Sequence record: MK327933.1
Reading direction: 5' to 3' (one strand)
Source of the DNA: Escherichia phage vB_EcoM_G2285
DNA: 64,000 nt
Under the pieces are notes generated by a model that made no database searches, was not told the origin of the DNA, and saw only the letters and a list, made by a program, of their open reading frames with translations. Position 1 is the first letter of the stretch. Each line of letters starts with the position of its first letter. This document shows positions 2,804 to 62,174 of the stretch, piece after piece. The position numbers and the translations under genes are program-made.

Positions 2804-4372
2804 ATGACTACTATCAAAACTAAAGCTCAGCTCGTAGACAAATGGAAAGAACTGCTGGAAGGTGAAGGCCTGCCGGAAATCGCTAATAGCAAGCAGGCTA
2901 TTATCGCTAAAATCTTCGAAAACCAGGAAAAAGATTTCGAAGTATCCCCTGAATATAAAGACGAGAAAATCGCTCAGGCATTTGGTTCTTTCTTGACCGA
3001 AGCTGAAATTGGTGGTGACCATGGTTATAATGCTCAGAACATCGCAGCGGGTCAAACCTCTGGTGCAGTAACCCAAATTGGGCCGGCAGTTATGGGTATG
3101 GTTCGTCGTGCTATTCCTAATCTGATCGCTTTTGATATTTGTGGTGTTCAGCCTATGAACAGCCCTACCGGTCAGGTATTTGCTCTCCGTGCAGTATATG
3201 GTAAAGACCCTATCGCTGCCGGCGCTAAAGAAGCTTTCCATCCGATGTATGCTCCAGACGCGATGTTCTCTGGTCAGGGTGCTGCTAAGAAATTCCCAGC
3301 TCTGGCTGCTAGCACACAAACCACTGTAGGTGATATCTATACTCACTTCTTCCAGGAAACTGGTACTGTATATCTGCAAGCTTCTGTTCAAGTAACAATC
3401 GATGCTGGTGCGACTGATGCTGCTAAATTAGATGCCGAAGTTAAGAAACAAATGGAAGCTGGTGCACTGGTAGAAATCGCTGAAGGTATGGCTACTTCTA
3501 TCGCTGAACTCCAGGAAGGTTTCAACGGTTCTACCGATAACCCATGGAATGAAATGGGCTTCCGTATCGATAAACAAGTTATCGAAGCTAAATCTCGCCA
3601 GCTGAAAGCTGCTTACTCTATCGAATTAGCACAAGACCTCCGTGCAGTACACGGTATGGATGCTGACGCTGAACTGAGCGGTATTCTGGCTACAGAAATT
3701 ATGCTAGAAATCAACCGTGAAGTTGTTGATTGGATTAACTACTCGGCACAGGTTGGTAAATCTGGTATGACCCTGACTCCGGGTTCTAAAGCTGGTGTAT
3801 TTGACTTCCAGGACCCGATTGATATCCGTGGTGCTCGTTGGGCCGGTGAAAGCTTTAAATCTCTGTTGTTCCAGATTGATAAAGAAGCAGTTGAAATTGC
3901 TCGTCAAACCGGTCGTGGTGAAGGTAACTTCATTATCGCTTCCCGTAACGTAGTTAACGTACTGGCTTCAGTTGATACTGGTATTTCTTACGCTGCACAG
4001 GGTCTGGCTTCTGGTTTTAATACCGACACTACTAAGTCTGTATTTGCCGGTGTACTTGGTGGTAAATACCGCGTATACATCGACCAGTATGCTAAACAGG
4101 ATTACTTCACCGTTGGTTACAAAGGCGCTAACGAAATGGATGCAGGTATTTACTATGCTCCTTACGTTGCACTTACCCCACTGCGTGGTTCCGATCCTAA
4201 GAACTTCCAGCCGGTAATGGGCTTTAAAACTCGTTACGGTATCGGTGTTAACCCGTTTGCTGAAAGTTCCCTGCAGGCTCCAGGTGCTCGCATCCAGTCC
4301 GGTATGCCGTCTATCCTGAACAGCCTTGGTAAGAACGCTTACTTTAGACGTGTATATGTAAAAGGCATCTAA
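2804..4372 (+). CDS. 23: Major capsid protein gp23
   Basis: 522 aa (T4 gp23 521); sequence reads as gp23. Confidence 0.95.
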   Translation: MTTIKTKAQLVDKWKELLEGEGLPEIANSKQAIIAKIFENQEKDFEVSPEYKDEKIAQAFGSFLTEAEIGGDHGYNAQNIAAGQTSGAVTQIGPAVMGMVRRAIPNLIAFDICGVQPMNSPTGQVFALRAVYGKDPIAAGAKEAFHPMYAPDAMFSGQGAAKKFPALAASTQTTVGDIYTHFFQETGTVYLQASVQVTIDAGATDAAKLDAEVKKQMEAGALVEIAEGMATSIAELQEGFNGSTDNPWNEMGFRIDKQVIEAKSRQLKAAYSIELAQDLRAVHGMDADAELSGILATEIMLEINREVVDWINYSAQVGKSGMTLTPGSKAGVFDFQDPIDIRGARWAGESFKSLLFQIDKEAVEIARQTGRGEGNFIIASRNVVNVLASVDTGISYAAQGLASGFNTDTTKSVFAGVLGGKYRVYIDQYAKQDYFTVGYKGANEMDAGIYYAPYVALTPLRGSDPKNFQPVMGFKTRYGIGVNPFAESSLQAPGARIQSGMPSILNSLGKNAYFRRVYVKGI

Positions 4373-58423: not shown

Positions 58424-59056
58424 TCACAGTACGTTAGTTACAAGGGTAATGATTTCTTTGGACACATTAGGGAAGTCAATGTAAGTATATTTACCACCGA
58501 TCTTAATCTTAACATCATTTTCAAGAGAAGTAAACAGCTTTGATTCAGTTTCTGACATGTTATATGCAAATATTCTAAGACAACCATCTCGACGAATTTC
58601 GATCTGACGAATACCTAGAACTCGTTTTGCAAATCGAACTTCCAAGTTACTACGGTTTTCACCAATTTCTTTAACTTCAACTTTATCTTTAATATTTTCA
58701 AAAACAAAGTTTGCTAGTTCATGCATTTCAGGAGTAACTCCACGTGCTTTTCTAGTGTTACGTTTCTGAAGAAGTTCTGGAGCATTTTCTTGGGCAAAGA
58801 GGTCCGCCGCTTTTTGGATAATATCCATTGCTTCGCCTGTTGCTATAAGTCCATCACCGGATTTTTCGACTAAACCTTTCTTAATCAATACACCAATGTT
58901 AGAGTTAACAACCGATGCATTGTATTCCGCTTCCAGAGCTTCACGGACATTGGCAGCAGTAGTGAAGTTGTTCTTAATGATATAAACCATTATTGCAGCA
59001 GTTTTTTCATTCAGAGCGTTTTCAGAAGCTTTGATGATGTAAGTAACTTTAGACAT
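58424..59056 (-). CDS. motA: Middle-transcription activator MotA
   Basis: 210 aa (T4 MotA 211); N-terminus MSKVTYIIKAS matches. Confidence 0.9.
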   Translation of the reverse strand: MSKVTYIIKASENALNEKTAAIMVYIIKNNFTTAANVREALEAEYNASVVNSNIGVLIKKGLVEKSGDGLIATGEAMDIIQKAADLFAQENAPELLQKRNTRKARGVTPEMHELANFVFENIKDKVEVKEIGENRSNLEVRFAKRVLGIRQIEIRRDGCLRIFAYNMSETESKLFTSLENDVKIKIGGKYTYIDFPNVSKEIITLVTNVL

Positions 59057-59059
59057 TTT

Positions 59060-59130
59060 ATTTCTCCAATTTGGTTGTTTTGTTTTGATAGGTCTATAAT
59101 ATCATGTTTGAAGCACATGTAAACTGTTTT
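59060..59130 (-). promoter_or_regulatory. T4 early-type promoter upstream of motA
   Basis: Minus strand GTTTACATGTGCTTCAAACATGATATTAT. Confidence 0.55.
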
Positions 59131-59152
59131 GTGAGAAAAAATGCACAAAAAG

Positions 59153-59168
59153 GAACCCGAAGGTTCCT
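59153..59168 (-). terminator. Hairpin terminator after the gene 52 unit
   Basis: ggaacc-cgaa-ggttcc flanked by A-run and T-run. Confidence 0.6.
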
Positions 59169-59272
59169 TACTTTTTAAAGTGGGCTGCTATTAAACCTAT
59201 AGCTAAGCCTGTCGCCAGGCCTAGAATAACAGCAAAGATACATAGTAACAAGAACTCGACTCCAAGGCTCAT
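59168..59272 (-). CDS. Small hydrophobic peptide, 34 aa (not in the track)
   Basis: Hand translation MSLGVEFLLLCIFAVILGLATGLAIGLIAAHFKK; ATG overlaps the gene 52 stop (ATGA). Confidence 0.4.
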   Translation of the reverse strand: MSLGVEFLLLCIFAVILGLATGLAIGLIAAHFKK

Positions 59273-60594
59273 AGAGCCTCCAAATCTTTAACATACTCAG
59301 TTACCACATCAGTAGACTTCCAATACTCATTTTCTTCTTTCTTAGCCTTAGCTTCTTCCGCTAGTTTACGTGCTTCATCGGAAGTGATATGGAAGATGTT
59401 AAGGCCTACCAGTTTATCGACATGTTCTTTATACATTTCGATTTGTGCTAGCTCTTCAGTCAAAGCTTTACGTGTCTTGCCCTGAATCACAATTTCGCCA
59501 CTGATAACTTTTTTGATGAAGTGTGCCTTAGCAAAAGCAAGTTTAAATGCTTTTTCAGATTCAAGGATTTTGTTGTCAATACGTTTCTGAACGTAAGTCT
59601 TACGGACTTCAACAAAATCTTTGATTAAGTCCACTACGTTATCGTAGACCGCTAATTTACCCTTTTCATTAATAACTGTGATGTTTTGTGAACGACGTTC
59701 GATGAGACTGAAATCTTTCATGATTTTTTCATGACGTAGCTCTTCATCATCAGGAAGCGAGTACTCTTTACGGAACTTCACCTTAAACCCAAAGCCGTGT
59801 TCACCACAATCATCTTCCCATGAGATTAGACCTTTGTCTTCCAATGGGTCAAGAACCTTACTCACATACGTTTCACGGTCGAATTTATATGGGATTTCAG
59901 TTATCTGCATTTGAGTGCGAGATGTGAACTTATATGTTCCGTGAATCTCATAACGCCCATCAACTTCATGTACTTCACCACGGAATTCCGGGAATTCAAC
60001 TTTTGGCTTAGTGACATTTTTACCTTGAAGAGCTTGTAATACAGCCTTTTTGACTGATTTAAAACTATGAGGCAGAATATTTGTTGCGTAACCGGTTGCA
60101 ATACCAGATACACCATTCAAAAGAACTGTCGGAATAATAGGAAGATAGAATTTTGGTGGAATGTGTTCTTTATCTTCATGAGCTGGAGCATATTCAGTAT
60201 CTTTATATACGTTATAGAAATTTTTACTTACACGAGCAAAAATATAACGAGATGCTGCAGCTTTTTGGACTGTTCTAGAACCAAAGTTGCCTTGGCCATC
60301 TAACAGTGGATAGTTGTTGTTCCATGTGTTAGCCATCAATGCACCTGCATCTTGTGCAGAAGATTCACCATGGTGATAACCTAAATCTGCAACGCCGCCT
60401 GCAATTGACGCAAGTTTATGAAATTTTTCTTTATTACCACGAGCCAAATCTAACGCACGATGGACCACAAAACGTTGAACCGGCTTAAATCCATCAATCA
60501 TGTTTGGGATTGCACGGTTTTCAACGGTGTACATCGCATATGCTAAGGCTTCGTTATCAATAATACTTTTTAGATTACGAGAATTAAATTGCAT
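59269..60594 (-). CDS. 52: DNA topoisomerase II medium subunit gp52
   Basis: 441 aa (T4 gp52 442); GyrA-like N-terminus with catalytic-Tyr region. Confidence 0.9.
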   Translation of the reverse strand: MQFNSRNLKSIIDNEALAYAMYTVENRAIPNMIDGFKPVQRFVVHRALDLARGNKEKFHKLASIAGGVADLGYHHGESSAQDAGALMANTWNNNYPLLDGQGNFGSRTVQKAAASRYIFARVSKNFYNVYKDTEYAPAHEDKEHIPPKFYLPIIPTVLLNGVSGIATGYATNILPHSFKSVKKAVLQALQGKNVTKPKVEFPEFRGEVHEVDGRYEIHGTYKFTSRTQMQITEIPYKFDRETYVSKVLDPLEDKGLISWEDDCGEHGFGFKVKFRKEYSLPDDEELRHEKIMKDFSLIERRSQNITVINEKGKLAVYDNVVDLIKDFVEVRKTYVQKRIDNKILESEKAFKLAFAKAHFIKKVISGEIVIQGKTRKALTEELAQIEMYKEHVDKLVGLNIFHITSDEARKLAEEAKAKKEENEYWKSTDVVTEYVKDLEAL

Positions 60595-60739
60595 ATTTTC
60601 ACCATACTAATGAACGAATAACCATTATAACATCCGAAATGAAAAGCACTACTTGGATTAGCCCAAACATCACACCGTAGTACAGAACAGTAAGCAACAA
60701 CAAGAGCCCGAAGGCTCCTGCTAAGATTTTCTTAATCAT
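60584..60739 (-). CDS. Small membrane protein, 51 aa, possibly ac (not in the track)
   Basis: Hand translation MIKKILAGAFGLLLLLTVLYYGVMFGLIQVVLFISDVIMVIRSLVW; length equals reported T4 Ac; assignment unverified. Confidence 0.4.
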
Positions 60740-60884
60740 TGCTCGCCTTTAACACGTTAAGAAGAGCTAAGACCGCTAAGGTACCTTGTGATACCGCCTG
60801 TTGAAATACTGTTGTTTCGCCTGTAACTAAAGTGCTAACGAATAAAAACGACCAACACAGCAATGCAATAATCCATGCTACCAT
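60732..60884 (-). CDS. Small membrane protein, 50 aa (not in the track)
   Basis: Hand translation MVAWIIALLCWSFLFVSTLVTGETTVFQQAVSQGTLAVLALLNVLKASND; GAGG RBS; stop overlaps next start. Confidence 0.4.
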   Translation of the reverse strand: MVAWIIALLCWSFLFVSTLVTGETTVFQQAVSQGTLAVLALLNVLKASND

Positions 60885-60936
60885 TTTAATTACCTCAAAA
60901 ATAAATTAAAGGCCCAACTTAATAGGCCTATATAAA

Positions 60937-61383
60937 TTAGTAACTCTGCAGAATGAATTTGAAATTATCTGCCAGAAGACGGTTCATTTCAGTGAGTGTT
61001 TGATATTCTGATGTATGATTGCGAGTGAATGCCAGAGCCAATTGACCTTTACCGTAACCAGTGGTCAGTGGTTTCATGTTCTTAGCTGCAACAAAGATTA
61101 CATCATATTCAATATTGTTAGTGCCCATGGTACGGGCTAGTTGCGAACGGCCTTGACGAATGTGAGAAAGAATTGCATCCAACCCTTGTTTAGAACGTTG
61201 ACGTCCTACAAAGAATCGTGCTGCTACTTGTCGCCAATCAGATGAACCTTTAACAAAGAAGTAAAAACCTTCACGAGAACGAAACTCTTTAGAAACTTCA
61301 GAACCGTATTCACCATTACGAACTACTGCAACAACTTCACCGCCAACTGCCAGAAGGTCTTTACGAGTTAAATATTTGGACAT
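60937..61383 (-). CDS. ndd: Nucleoid disruption protein Ndd
   Basis: 148 aa; C-terminal [20 protein letters not shown]...NFKF matches T4 Ndd. Confidence 0.8.
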
Positions 61384-61389
61384 GCTAAT

Positions 61390-61459
61390 TTCCTCAATTG
61401 ATTAATGTTTTTGTAATCCATGAGAGCATTATACTCTGCTCTCAAGAGTTTGTACAATT
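61390..61459 (-). promoter_or_regulatory. T4 early-type promoter upstream of ndd (copy of the 31605-31660 element)
   Basis: Near-identical roughly 45-nt block. Confidence 0.5.
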
Positions 61460-61660
61460 TTATTCAGCTATATCAGAACGTTCAAAAAGCTCTTCAACAG
61501 TTAAACATTCAGTGTCATCTTCAATAAAGAATCGAGTCCAACACGTTGGGGCGATACAGTTATGAGTTTGTCCGGCGATAGAAGCTACACGAATAAGCTG
61601 CTGGCCATTATTCAGAACAAATTTTTCACCAATTTCAACATCTTTAAAAAGCTTAGCCAT
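61460..61660 (-). CDS. Hypothetical protein
   Basis: 66-aa ORF between two early promoters. Confidence 0.45.
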   Translation of the reverse strand: MAKLFKDVEIGEKFVLNNGQQLIRVASIAGQTHNCIAPTCWTRFFIEDDTECLTVEELFERSDIAE

Positions 61661-61910
61661 TTTGTGTTCCTCATATTTTGATAGGACTACTATACCATAA
61701 TCCTACCTTGATGTAAACAATTAAATTACATTAAAATACGTTAAAGCCAACCATGTTCCAGTGAACGAACATGCGATGTAAAAACCCGTATCACAAATTG
61801 TTCTTAGTACAATAAGAAGTGCATTTTTCATAAGTACCTCAATGCAATTGAAAATATTATACAAATCATAGGGATACTAAGCAACCATATTCCGATCCAC
61901 ATTTTAGAGC

Positions 61911-62174
61911 TCATATCTCAACTTCCGCGAGTTCCATATATCCTTTGTTGATAACCTCTTTAAGGTCTTTAGAAAGAATAACATTAAAATGGTCGTTCAT
62001 ATGTCCATTAACCAGACGAGTTATTTCGGCTTCAGATGACATATAAGGCACGTCTGAGTCCCAATGAGATAGGCCTAAATGGGTATAAATCATCCCTTCG
62101 TCATCTGCAGTGTTGTACATTGAAACAAATTCGCCTGTTACTTTATGTTTTGCGTAGAAAAATTTAAATTTCAT
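61911..62174 (-). CDS. Hypothetical protein
   Basis: 87-aa ORF below an early promoter. Confidence 0.45.
   Translation of the reverse strand: MKFKFFYAKHKVTGEFVSMYNTADDEGMIYTHLGLSHWDSDVPYMSSEAEITRLVNGHMNDHFNVILSKDLKEVINKGYMELAEVEI

Follow-up and report, generated by a model that had tools for sequence, protein, structure and literature searches.

We report on a 34-codon open reading frame (ORF), hereafter the mini-ORF, in Escherichia phage vB_EcoM_G2285 (sequence record MK327933.1), of which a stretch of 64,000 nucleotides (nt), the window, was analysed. The mini-ORF is located on the minus strand (59168-59272) and follows gene 52 (59269-60594, minus strand), which was identified from the ORF call and from the annotation in relatives and T4 and encodes the medium subunit of topoisomerase II (441 amino acids, aa). 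Its product, MSLGVEFLLLCIFAVILGLATGLAIGLIAAHFKK, is a predicted single-span membrane peptide assigned to phrog_16377. Different small ORFs occupy the interval between the gene 52 stop and the next hairpin in different T-even lineages; we refer to this interval as the post-52 slot, to its occupants as types A to F and to the 34-mer as type B.

Gene 52 ends with AAA GAT TTG GAG GCT CTA TGA (minus-strand reading), which encodes K D L E A L, and the ATG of the mini-ORF (59272-59270, within ctATGAgc) is made up of the last A of the CTA leucine codon and the TG of the gene 52 stop (TGA, 59271-59269). The two genes thereby share four bases, ATGA. At its other end, the mini-ORF terminates with TAA (59170-59168), the final two A's of which are the first two stem bases of a terminator-type hairpin, AAGGAACC-UUCG-GGUUCCUU (in DNA AAGGAACC-TTCG-GGTTCCTT), with a U-tract (59145-59169, minus strand; stem-loop 59169-59150). 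Both the stop/start overlap and the ending inside the hairpin had been described in a first-pass annotation of this DNA; the former can be read directly on the minus strand, and the latter is borne out by the two bases that the stop codon contributes to the stem. Approximately 25 nt beyond the hairpin lies the motA early promoter, TTTACA-N16-TATTAT (59096-59123, minus strand), and the next gene downstream is motA (58424-59056, minus strand; 210 aa, phrog_1345), the activator of middle transcription. Scanning 58900-62000 against Rfam revealed no known RNA element. In T4 the slot is held by motA.1, and in the T4-type phage UFV13 the homologous hairpin position is listed as the 'motA.1' terminator (PMC5931544), an incidental entry and the only mention of motA.1 that we found in the literature.

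Coding status, membrane properties and expression of the mini-ORF

Selection was analysed using 13 distinct nucleotide haplotypes of the cassette, taken from the window, phage HY126 and Dhakavirus genomes. All 34 codons are kept in every one of the 13 haplotypes, and the 24 variant alleles are distributed as 7, 0 and 17 over codon positions 1, 2 and 3, respectively. In the frame of the mini-ORF 18 of these are synonymous and six non-synonymous (expected synonymous fraction 0.28; binomial P=1.9e-6), to be compared with 8 synonymous/17 non-synonymous and 1/23 in the two other frames. The six replacements, L3F, V5I, V15I, L23I, H31N and K34N, are all conservative. Since the synonymous excess is confined to its frame and all haplotypes are intact, the mini-ORF is, as judged from comparison of these sequences, a real protein-coding gene. 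Conservation in other T-even genomes had been named in the first-pass annotation as a check on this candidate, and the peptide is conserved in all haplotypes and under purifying selection. Specifically, the Nei-Gojobori ratio of non-synonymous to synonymous substitution rates (dN/dS) for Dhakavirus pairs is 0.062 (dS 0.24) for the mini-ORF, and 0.031 (dS 0.39) when the final 99 gene 52 codons of these genomes are compared. The low dN/dS of the mini-ORF beside that of gene 52 argues that selection acts on the amino acid sequence of the peptide, apparently nearly as strongly as on the topoisomerase subunit, while silent RNA sites appear to drift freely. An overlapping 39-aa ORF (59175-59294) was rejected as a true gene on the basis of its 1 synonymous/23 non-synonymous changes. 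Moreover, phage IME540 was considered as a natural knock-out; the short tblastn match behind this idea turned out to be a filtering artefact and the ORF is intact in IME540.

The 34-mer has a grand average of hydropathy (GRAVY) of 1.79, and its top 19-residue Kyte-Doolittle window (2.76) ranks first among the 285 ATG-initiated ORFs of 25-80 aa in the six frames of the window. It lies above the limits for a single-span membrane protein, i.e. a hydrophobic segment of at least 19 residues at a Kyte-Doolittle threshold of 1.6 that is predicted to be helical. The summed insertion energy on the Hessa scale is approximately -3.9 kcal/mol (-3.85), and AlphaFold2 gives one unbroken helix comprising residues 3-32 (mean predicted local distance difference test score, pLDDT, 92). 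Hence, the view in the first-pass annotation of an almost wholly hydrophobic product with one transmembrane helix agrees with both the hydropathy rank and the structure model, and the mini-ORF product is predicted to be a single-helix membrane peptide. Charged residues are found near the N-terminus (E6) and at the C-terminus (KK). According to the positive-inside rule the C-terminal KK suggests an N-out/C-in topology with KK on the cytoplasmic side. A chain of 34 residues would be released before it has fully emerged from the ribosome, and membrane insertion would then be post-translational.

With respect to translation, a GGAGG Shine-Dalgarno sequence (59277-59281, minus strand) is positioned 4 nt upstream of the mini-ORF ATG, within the gene 52 codons for L-E-A. 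Together with this sequence, the mini-ORF AUG and the gene 52 UGA are enclosed in a predicted RNA hairpin of 12 bp and -17 kcal/mol (59258-59286, minus strand). When 56 nt around the junction were folded and compared with 200 shuffled sequences, the hairpin had a z-score of -2.83 and was equalled by three of the 200 shuffles. Seven distinct junction sequences keep 96% of its pairs, by way of G-C/G-U and U-G/U-A changes, and similar junction hairpins are predicted in type C (-15.3 kcal/mol) and type D (-15.5 kcal/mol). An overlapping stop and start together with a Shine-Dalgarno sequence inside the upstream gene is the arrangement of a coupled gene pair. Considering that a ribosome ending gene 52 must open the predicted hairpin, the folding suggests obligatory translational coupling, by termination-reinitiation and with little independent initiation. 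According to this model, free ribosomes would seldom initiate at the mini-ORF as the hairpin would mask the Shine-Dalgarno sequence, the AUG and the UGA, while ribosomes completing gene 52 would melt it and reinitiate, such that peptide output would be tied to gp52 output. In T4 the motA.1 transcript, as well as those of 52.1 and ac, is classed as early (PMC9697503 Table S2), and by analogy the mini-ORF would be expressed early from the gene 52 mRNA.

Exchange of the module, the post-52 slot and neighbouring ORFs

The window region shares 98% identity with T-even phages of the Mosigvirus type (HY126, for example), and the mini-ORF is Dhakavirus-like. Thus, the last 300 nt of gene 52 show approximately 73% identity between the window and Dhakavirus, with a proportion of synonymous differences (pS) of 0.64-0.85, i.e. 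synonymous sites near saturation, to be compared with 90-98% identity and a pS of 0.08-0.36 for the mini-ORF. In the alignment the window is Mosigvirus-like up to ...ACTGATGT (left crossover 59305-59314), Dhakavirus-like through the mini-ORF and the GGAACC/GGTTCC hairpin, and Mosigvirus-like again in the U-tract (right crossover ~59145-59152). The alignment and the identity and pS contrasts delimit an exchanged module of ~165 nt (59145-59314, minus strand), in which the final ~12-15 gene 52 codons are followed by the mini-ORF and its own hairpin; each cassette type carries a hairpin of its own. The type B arrangement is present in only three Mosigvirus records (HY126, pEK20 and 348Ecol098PP) and their cassettes are 100% identical, which is consistent with a single acquisition event. 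On these sequence contrasts, the Mosigvirus lineage of the window has acquired the module horizontally from a Dhakavirus-type phage. The recombination took place within the conserved 3' terminus of gene 52 on one side and within a PeSL-type element before motA on the other.

PeSL elements consist of a stem-loop and an early promoter (TTTACW-N17-TAYWAT for the T4/PST group; PMC4122927) and mediate shuffling of ORFans in T4-type phages (PMC2839356, PMC4122927). A further, experimental criterion for such cassettes is that they give rise to excised mini-circles, as assayed by inverse PCR (PMC2839356). The hairpin and the motA promoter in the window have this composition, with a spacer of 16 instead of 17, and the replacement of ORFs typical of such elements is seen as the swap of type B for type C between 98%-identical genomes. 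In several relatives an extra ORF of 71-93 aa is present between the post-52 terminator and motA (loci L003, at 3522-3737, L010, L011, L006/L007/L015 and L042). These ORFs are of at least three unrelated kinds, and they are flanked by duplicated motA early promoter elements (direct repeats of 36-55 nt, 300-345 nt apart), a PeSL signature. A 45-aa ORF initiated by TTG (59011-59148, minus strand; 3429-3566 in locus L001) extends over the motA promoter and start, and the NRG-P0074 record lists its product as hypothetical; lacking hydrophobicity and overlapping regulatory sequence, it is probably a spurious call.

To survey the slot we used 38 IMG/VR loci found through gp52, plus phage records. 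Between the gene 52 stop and the next hairpin there are different hydrophobic ORFs depending on lineage, at least six unrelated types of 23-77 aa, and some genera have none. Type A is the motA.1 (49 aa) of Tequatrovirus; Enterobacter phage CIP9 and Edwardsiella phage PEi20 have diverged homologues of it. Type B, the 34-mer, is present in Dhakavirus and a few Mosigvirus. The majority of Mosigvirus, RB69 among them, have type C (26 codons with a TTGA overlap start; 150 records). Type D measures 45-46 aa, begins 7 nt upstream of the stop and occurs in Salmonella phage CGG4-1 as well as in the Citrobacter phages Merlin and Moon, while type E comprises 23 aa and type F 77 aa with at least two hydrophobic segments. 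Types A, B and D constitute separate PHROG families, and C, E and F have no family. For type E the selection test had too few variants or gave no signal. No slot ORF accompanies gene 52 in the CC31-type phages or in the remaining ORF-less loci, which we take to be Acinetobacter phages. In CC31 both flanks are kept, with no ORF in between: on one side the hairpin at the stop codon, on the other the hairpin found downstream of type D in Merlin. The CC31-type hairpin across the gene 52 stop (loci L019 and L021) is GAGGCUCUGUAAGAGCUUC; the match of its 3' arm to the first type B codons of VR5 and ESCO10 hints at a junction hairpin older than the ORF. (In the ESCO10 record both gene 52 and motA are labelled 'endonuclease subunit'.) Finally, near-identical gp52 proteins (~99%) are paired with unrelated peptides, the 34-mer in one case and the 26-mer in the other.

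In the CIP9/PEi20 group (L012-L014 and L041) a second, very hydrophobic 26-aa ORF, MMTIYGLFVGMIFFLWIIYLVIEYFF, is located directly after the motA.1 homologue; in PEi20 it overlaps the motA.1 stop, giving two coupled mini-ORFs in tandem after gene 52. Fusion of gp52 and the peptide through frameshifting was considered unlikely, with the mini-ORF in the -1 frame relative to gene 52. By inspection only, there is no slippery heptamer at GCT CTA TGA or at the T4 counterpart ATC AAA TGA, and the prfB-like motif of type C, GGAGG-CA-CTT-TGA, would shift to the +1 frame and not to that of the peptide.

The match of the 34-mer to phrog_16377 is full-length (E = 2.3e-21; residues 1-34 aligned with positions 1-34 of the 34-position profile), and the cassette is present in 54 phage records, approximately 50 from Dhakavirus and three from Mosigvirus. 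Public records of MX01, E33, KIT01, HY126 and others list an identical protein as 'hypothetical protein', and UniRef includes it; in many other records, among them JS98, JS10, IME08, Bp7 and VR5, the same DNA is present with the ORF uncalled. The mini-ORF is hence already catalogued as a hypothetical protein, and it belongs to the class of small plastic early ORFs of T-even phages. Approximately half of the GenBank records with the mini-ORF leave it uncalled, and pipelines that drop ORFs of less than ~40 codons miss real T-even genes. Searches for relatives gave nothing above threshold in Pfam and nothing in PADLOC or PDB, and phmmer against 1.84 billion representatives returned only the 34-mer's own cluster. 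We rejected homology between the 34-mer and T4 motA.1 (phrog_3487; no match at E<=1, no PHROG cross-hits and only the own cluster in phmmer), and likewise homology to the other slot peptides, for which there is no cross-family PHROG match; for such short hydrophobic sequences very old shared ancestry is possible. T4 motA.1 (NP_049874) is entered in UniProt (P39512) as 'Uncharacterized 4.8 kDa protein in motA-Gp52 intergenic region', and is also labelled 'hypothetical predicted periplasmic protein'. Several records have T4-type motA.1 proteins misnamed as 'flagellar motor protein MotA' or 'transcriptional regulator', apparently by propagation of names.

The gene order around the mini-ORF, denB - small ORFs - ndd - ac - 52.1 - 52 - mini-ORF - motA, is as in T4. 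The small ORFs upstream of gene 52, all on the minus strand, include a homologue of T4 gp52.1 (60599-60739; 46 aa, predicted membrane protein, phrog_3595), a homologue of T4 Ac, which is linked to acridine resistance/uptake (60732-60884; 50 aa, phrog_2501), a hydrophobic ORF (61721-61831; 36 aa from the ATG, phrog_18561) located where T4 has ndd.5, and a hydrophobic 28-aa ORF similar to T4 ndd.6 (61828-61914; phrog_8851). The first-pass annotation had noted tiled membrane peptides here; they do exist, with sizes and coordinates slightly different from those given, the gp52.1 homologue for instance being 46 aa from its ATG and not 51. They are, however, known 52.1, ac and ndd.5/ndd.6-type ORFs, and the acriflavine test suggested for the 51-aa ORF re-describes the ac gene, here the 50-aa ORF. 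The start of the ndd.6-like ORF likewise overlaps, by ATGA, the stop of the preceding 87-aa ORF (61911-62174), and its product likewise starts with 'MS', which indicates that the stop/start-coupled membrane mini-ORF design recurs in the early region. Between ndd (60937-61383) and ac (60732-60884) there is only a hairpin (60910-60929) and, unlike in T4, no stp, which in T4 encodes a 26-aa activator of the host PrrC anticodon nuclease.

Possible functions of the peptide

The best explanation of these data, which we consider reasonably probable, is that the mini-ORF is a genuine mini-gene encoding a 34-residue single-helix inner-membrane peptide that is made early from the gene 52 mRNA and has an accessory role. 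The accessory reading follows from the peptide being selected in nature, its counterpart dispensable to T4 in the laboratory, the slot ORF replaced beside near-identical gp52, absent in some genera and horizontally mobile. Plastic ORFans of T4-type phages that are shuffled by PeSL elements would be expected to behave in this way. Dispensability in T4 is indicated by CRISPRi-ART, in which motA.1 scored -0.09 (P=0.33, 'Not Fit') and gene 52 scored 2.17 ('Fit'; PMC11879866 supplementary data). It is also indicated by the HIDEN-SEQ transposon screen, which gives insertions in motA.1 at 11 of 11 sites ('Non-essential'), motA as essential and, for one conditional comparison, a log2 fold change of -0.26 for motA.1 (P=0.70; bioRxiv 10.1101/2025.11.20.689424). 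What we infer with least certainty is that the peptide would be a non-essential factor acting at the host inner membrane, with a benefit that is host- or condition-specific, and would not be a topoisomerase component.

Several points weigh against this interpretation. The host membrane as target would follow from evolutionary behaviour only, and the T4 essentiality data concern a non-homologous peptide and would bear on the 34-mer only by analogy. PADLOC gave no defence or anti-defence homology for the 34-mer; with no match in this defence library, and motA.1 non-essential in two genome-wide T4 screens, the host-takeover or resistance role put forward in the first-pass annotation is left without direct support. 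Moreover, selection is not demonstrable for type C (5 synonymous/5 non-synonymous, P=0.10), which is broken in two of 11 sampled genomes, by a 5-nt duplication in JQD51 (L050) and a 1-nt deletion in phiEC1 (L053), the latter an 'UNVERIFIED' record in which a sequencing error is possible. Judging from type C, absence or decay of the slot ORF evidently need not carry an obvious cost. At the protein level, MotA.1, gp52.1 and Ac were all undetected by mass spectrometry in T4 (PMC9697503 Table S2), as expected for tiny hydrophobic peptides, and our literature search found no T4 ribosome-profiling study. As for the start-masking hairpin, the junction alignment contains no double compensatory changes, the sequences being too invariant to give power (the shuffle controls all tie). 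Furthermore, the T4 junction and two other cassette types do not have such a hairpin, so sequestration is not universal.

Among other explanations, the peptide might be a partner or membrane anchor of the topoisomerase, made in step with gp52 and tethering or modulating gp39/gp52/gp60 at the inner membrane. T4 replication proteins have long been reported to associate with the inner membrane, the coupling of the mini-ORF to gene 52 looks obligatory, a hydrophobic ORF follows gene 52 in most of the enterobacterial T-even genera surveyed, and the peptide is constrained almost as tightly as gp52. Against this, the 34-mer and the 26-mer reside beside ~99% identical gp52. In addition, the six peptide types vary in length, number of hydrophobic segments and charge placement, the CC31-type and putative Acinetobacter phages have gene 52 and no slot ORF, and knock-down or disruption of T4 motA.1 is without the fitness effect that knock-down of gene 52 has. 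We therefore regard this explanation as unlikely.

It is similarly doubtful that the 34-mer is a membrane-active, toxin-like peptide, which by perturbing potential or permeability would contribute to host shut-off, exclusion of competing phages or lysis timing. Type I toxins and small holin/antiholin-like peptides are around 30 aa with one helix and a basic C-terminus, and the hydrophobic helix with a C-terminal KK resembles this architecture; the neighbouring ac and 52.1 encode small membrane proteins, one of which changes dye uptake, and coupling and sequestration of the start would fit a dose-limited product. Against this stand the lack of relatives in Pfam, PADLOC, PDB and, outside its own cluster, among the 1.84 billion representatives, and the finding of neither an antisense RNA nor a known RNA element in the Rfam scan.

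A further alternative, in our opinion a rather improbable one, is that it is translation itself that matters. Ribosomes carried to the terminator would then adjust termination and the extent of read-through into motA, or would shield the gene 52 mRNA at its 3' end, and the hydrophobic peptide would be incidental, a result of the T-rich sequence. Such a role would fit that types A, B and C stop 0-5 nt from or inside the hairpin, within the footprint of a terminating ribosome, that ORF and hairpin move as one module, and that the peptides across genera share position and hydrophobicity only. A pure spacer would not, however, show strongly selected amino acids next to free silent sites (dN/dS 0.06, dS 0.24); moreover, an early promoter belonging to motA lies immediately downstream, T4 tolerates transposons throughout motA.1 although motA is essential, and in types D and E the hairpin is farther from the stop.

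Finally, a chance ORF without function in a 3' untranslated spacer is very improbable and largely refuted by the selection tests, with their frame-specific synonymous excess (P=2e-6), zero second-position changes, 13 of 13 intact haplotypes and dN/dS of 0.06, and by the top hydrophobicity rank among 285 small ORFs, even though a 34-codon open frame is not rare in AT-rich DNA, T-rich sequence tends to translate into hydrophobic residues, type C is without clear selection and has broken alleles, and several annotators skipped the mini-ORF.

Returning to the accessory mini-gene, a broader and more tentative idea, possible at best, is that the end of gene 52 is a fixed 'expression dock', where any ORF between dock and terminator gets translated and which would serve as a cradle and exchange point for membrane mini-proteins. 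The conserved last codons, KDLE-A/E-L, encode the Shine-Dalgarno sequence, the stop is usually in an NTGA overlap and a junction hairpin is present even where there is no ORF (CC31); these features may together form the dock. The slot may repeatedly have produced or captured unrelated one- or two-helix peptides, which may then be selected (types A and B), decay (type C) or be swapped between genera with their own terminator. If true, it would point to mini-proteins that adapt T-even phages to particular hosts and offer a tractable example of how such proteins originate and spread in viruses. The locus is also a natural experiment, with near-identical phages that differ only in the post-52 membrane peptide, and isogenic swaps could reveal what the peptides contribute to, for example, host range, exclusion or envelope physiology. 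With a T4 counterpart that is dispensable in the laboratory, the locus is of modest practical importance.

Comparison with known systems

To what was known about these ORFs we add quantitative evidence for selection, a predicted start-masking hairpin, and the post-52 slot as a cassette-exchange point with at least six unrelated peptides. The closest counterpart is T4 motA.1, which occupies the same slot, has the ATGA overlap with the gene 52 TGA, encodes a small hydrophobic product and has downstream of it a terminator hairpin and, beyond this, the early promoter of motA. Purifying selection acts on motA.1 as well, with 6 synonymous/1 non-synonymous changes in T4-likes (P=0.003) and 44/20 for the homologues in the CIP9/PEi20 group (P=2e-11). 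In contrast to the 34-mer, with which it shares no detectable homology, motA.1 constitutes a separate PHROG family, is Gly/Ala-rich and far less hydrophobic (Hessa +1.0 compared to -3.9), and its junction is without a start-sequestering hairpin.

T4 Ac and gp52.1 are neighbours in the same transcription unit and resemble the 34-mer in being small (46-51 aa), hydrophobic, encoded by tightly packed or overlapping genes and early; they are also non-essential in T4 screens. Unlike the post-52 slot, which holds unrelated sequences in each genus, they represent homologous families common to T4 and the window. Outside phages, the bacterial small inner-membrane proteins and type I toxins (~20-50 aa) are alike in size, in having a single predicted helix with charged residues at one end and in likely being inserted post-translationally. 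They differ from the 34-mer, which has no sequence relation to them, no antisense RNA that we found, and a coupling to an upstream enzyme gene.

The PeSL cassettes (Arbiol et al. 2010, PMC2839356; Comeau et al. 2014, PMC4122927) differ from the window module in two respects. Of the two crossovers of the module, only the right-hand one is in a PeSL-type element, the left-hand one being within the conserved 3'-terminal part of gene 52. Moreover, the swapped mini-ORF comes without a promoter and relies on gene 52 to be transcribed and probably also to be translated. What the two share is the terminator stem-loop followed by an early promoter (TTTACW...TAYWAT), and a site at which ORFs are replaced, inserted and deleted among close relatives.

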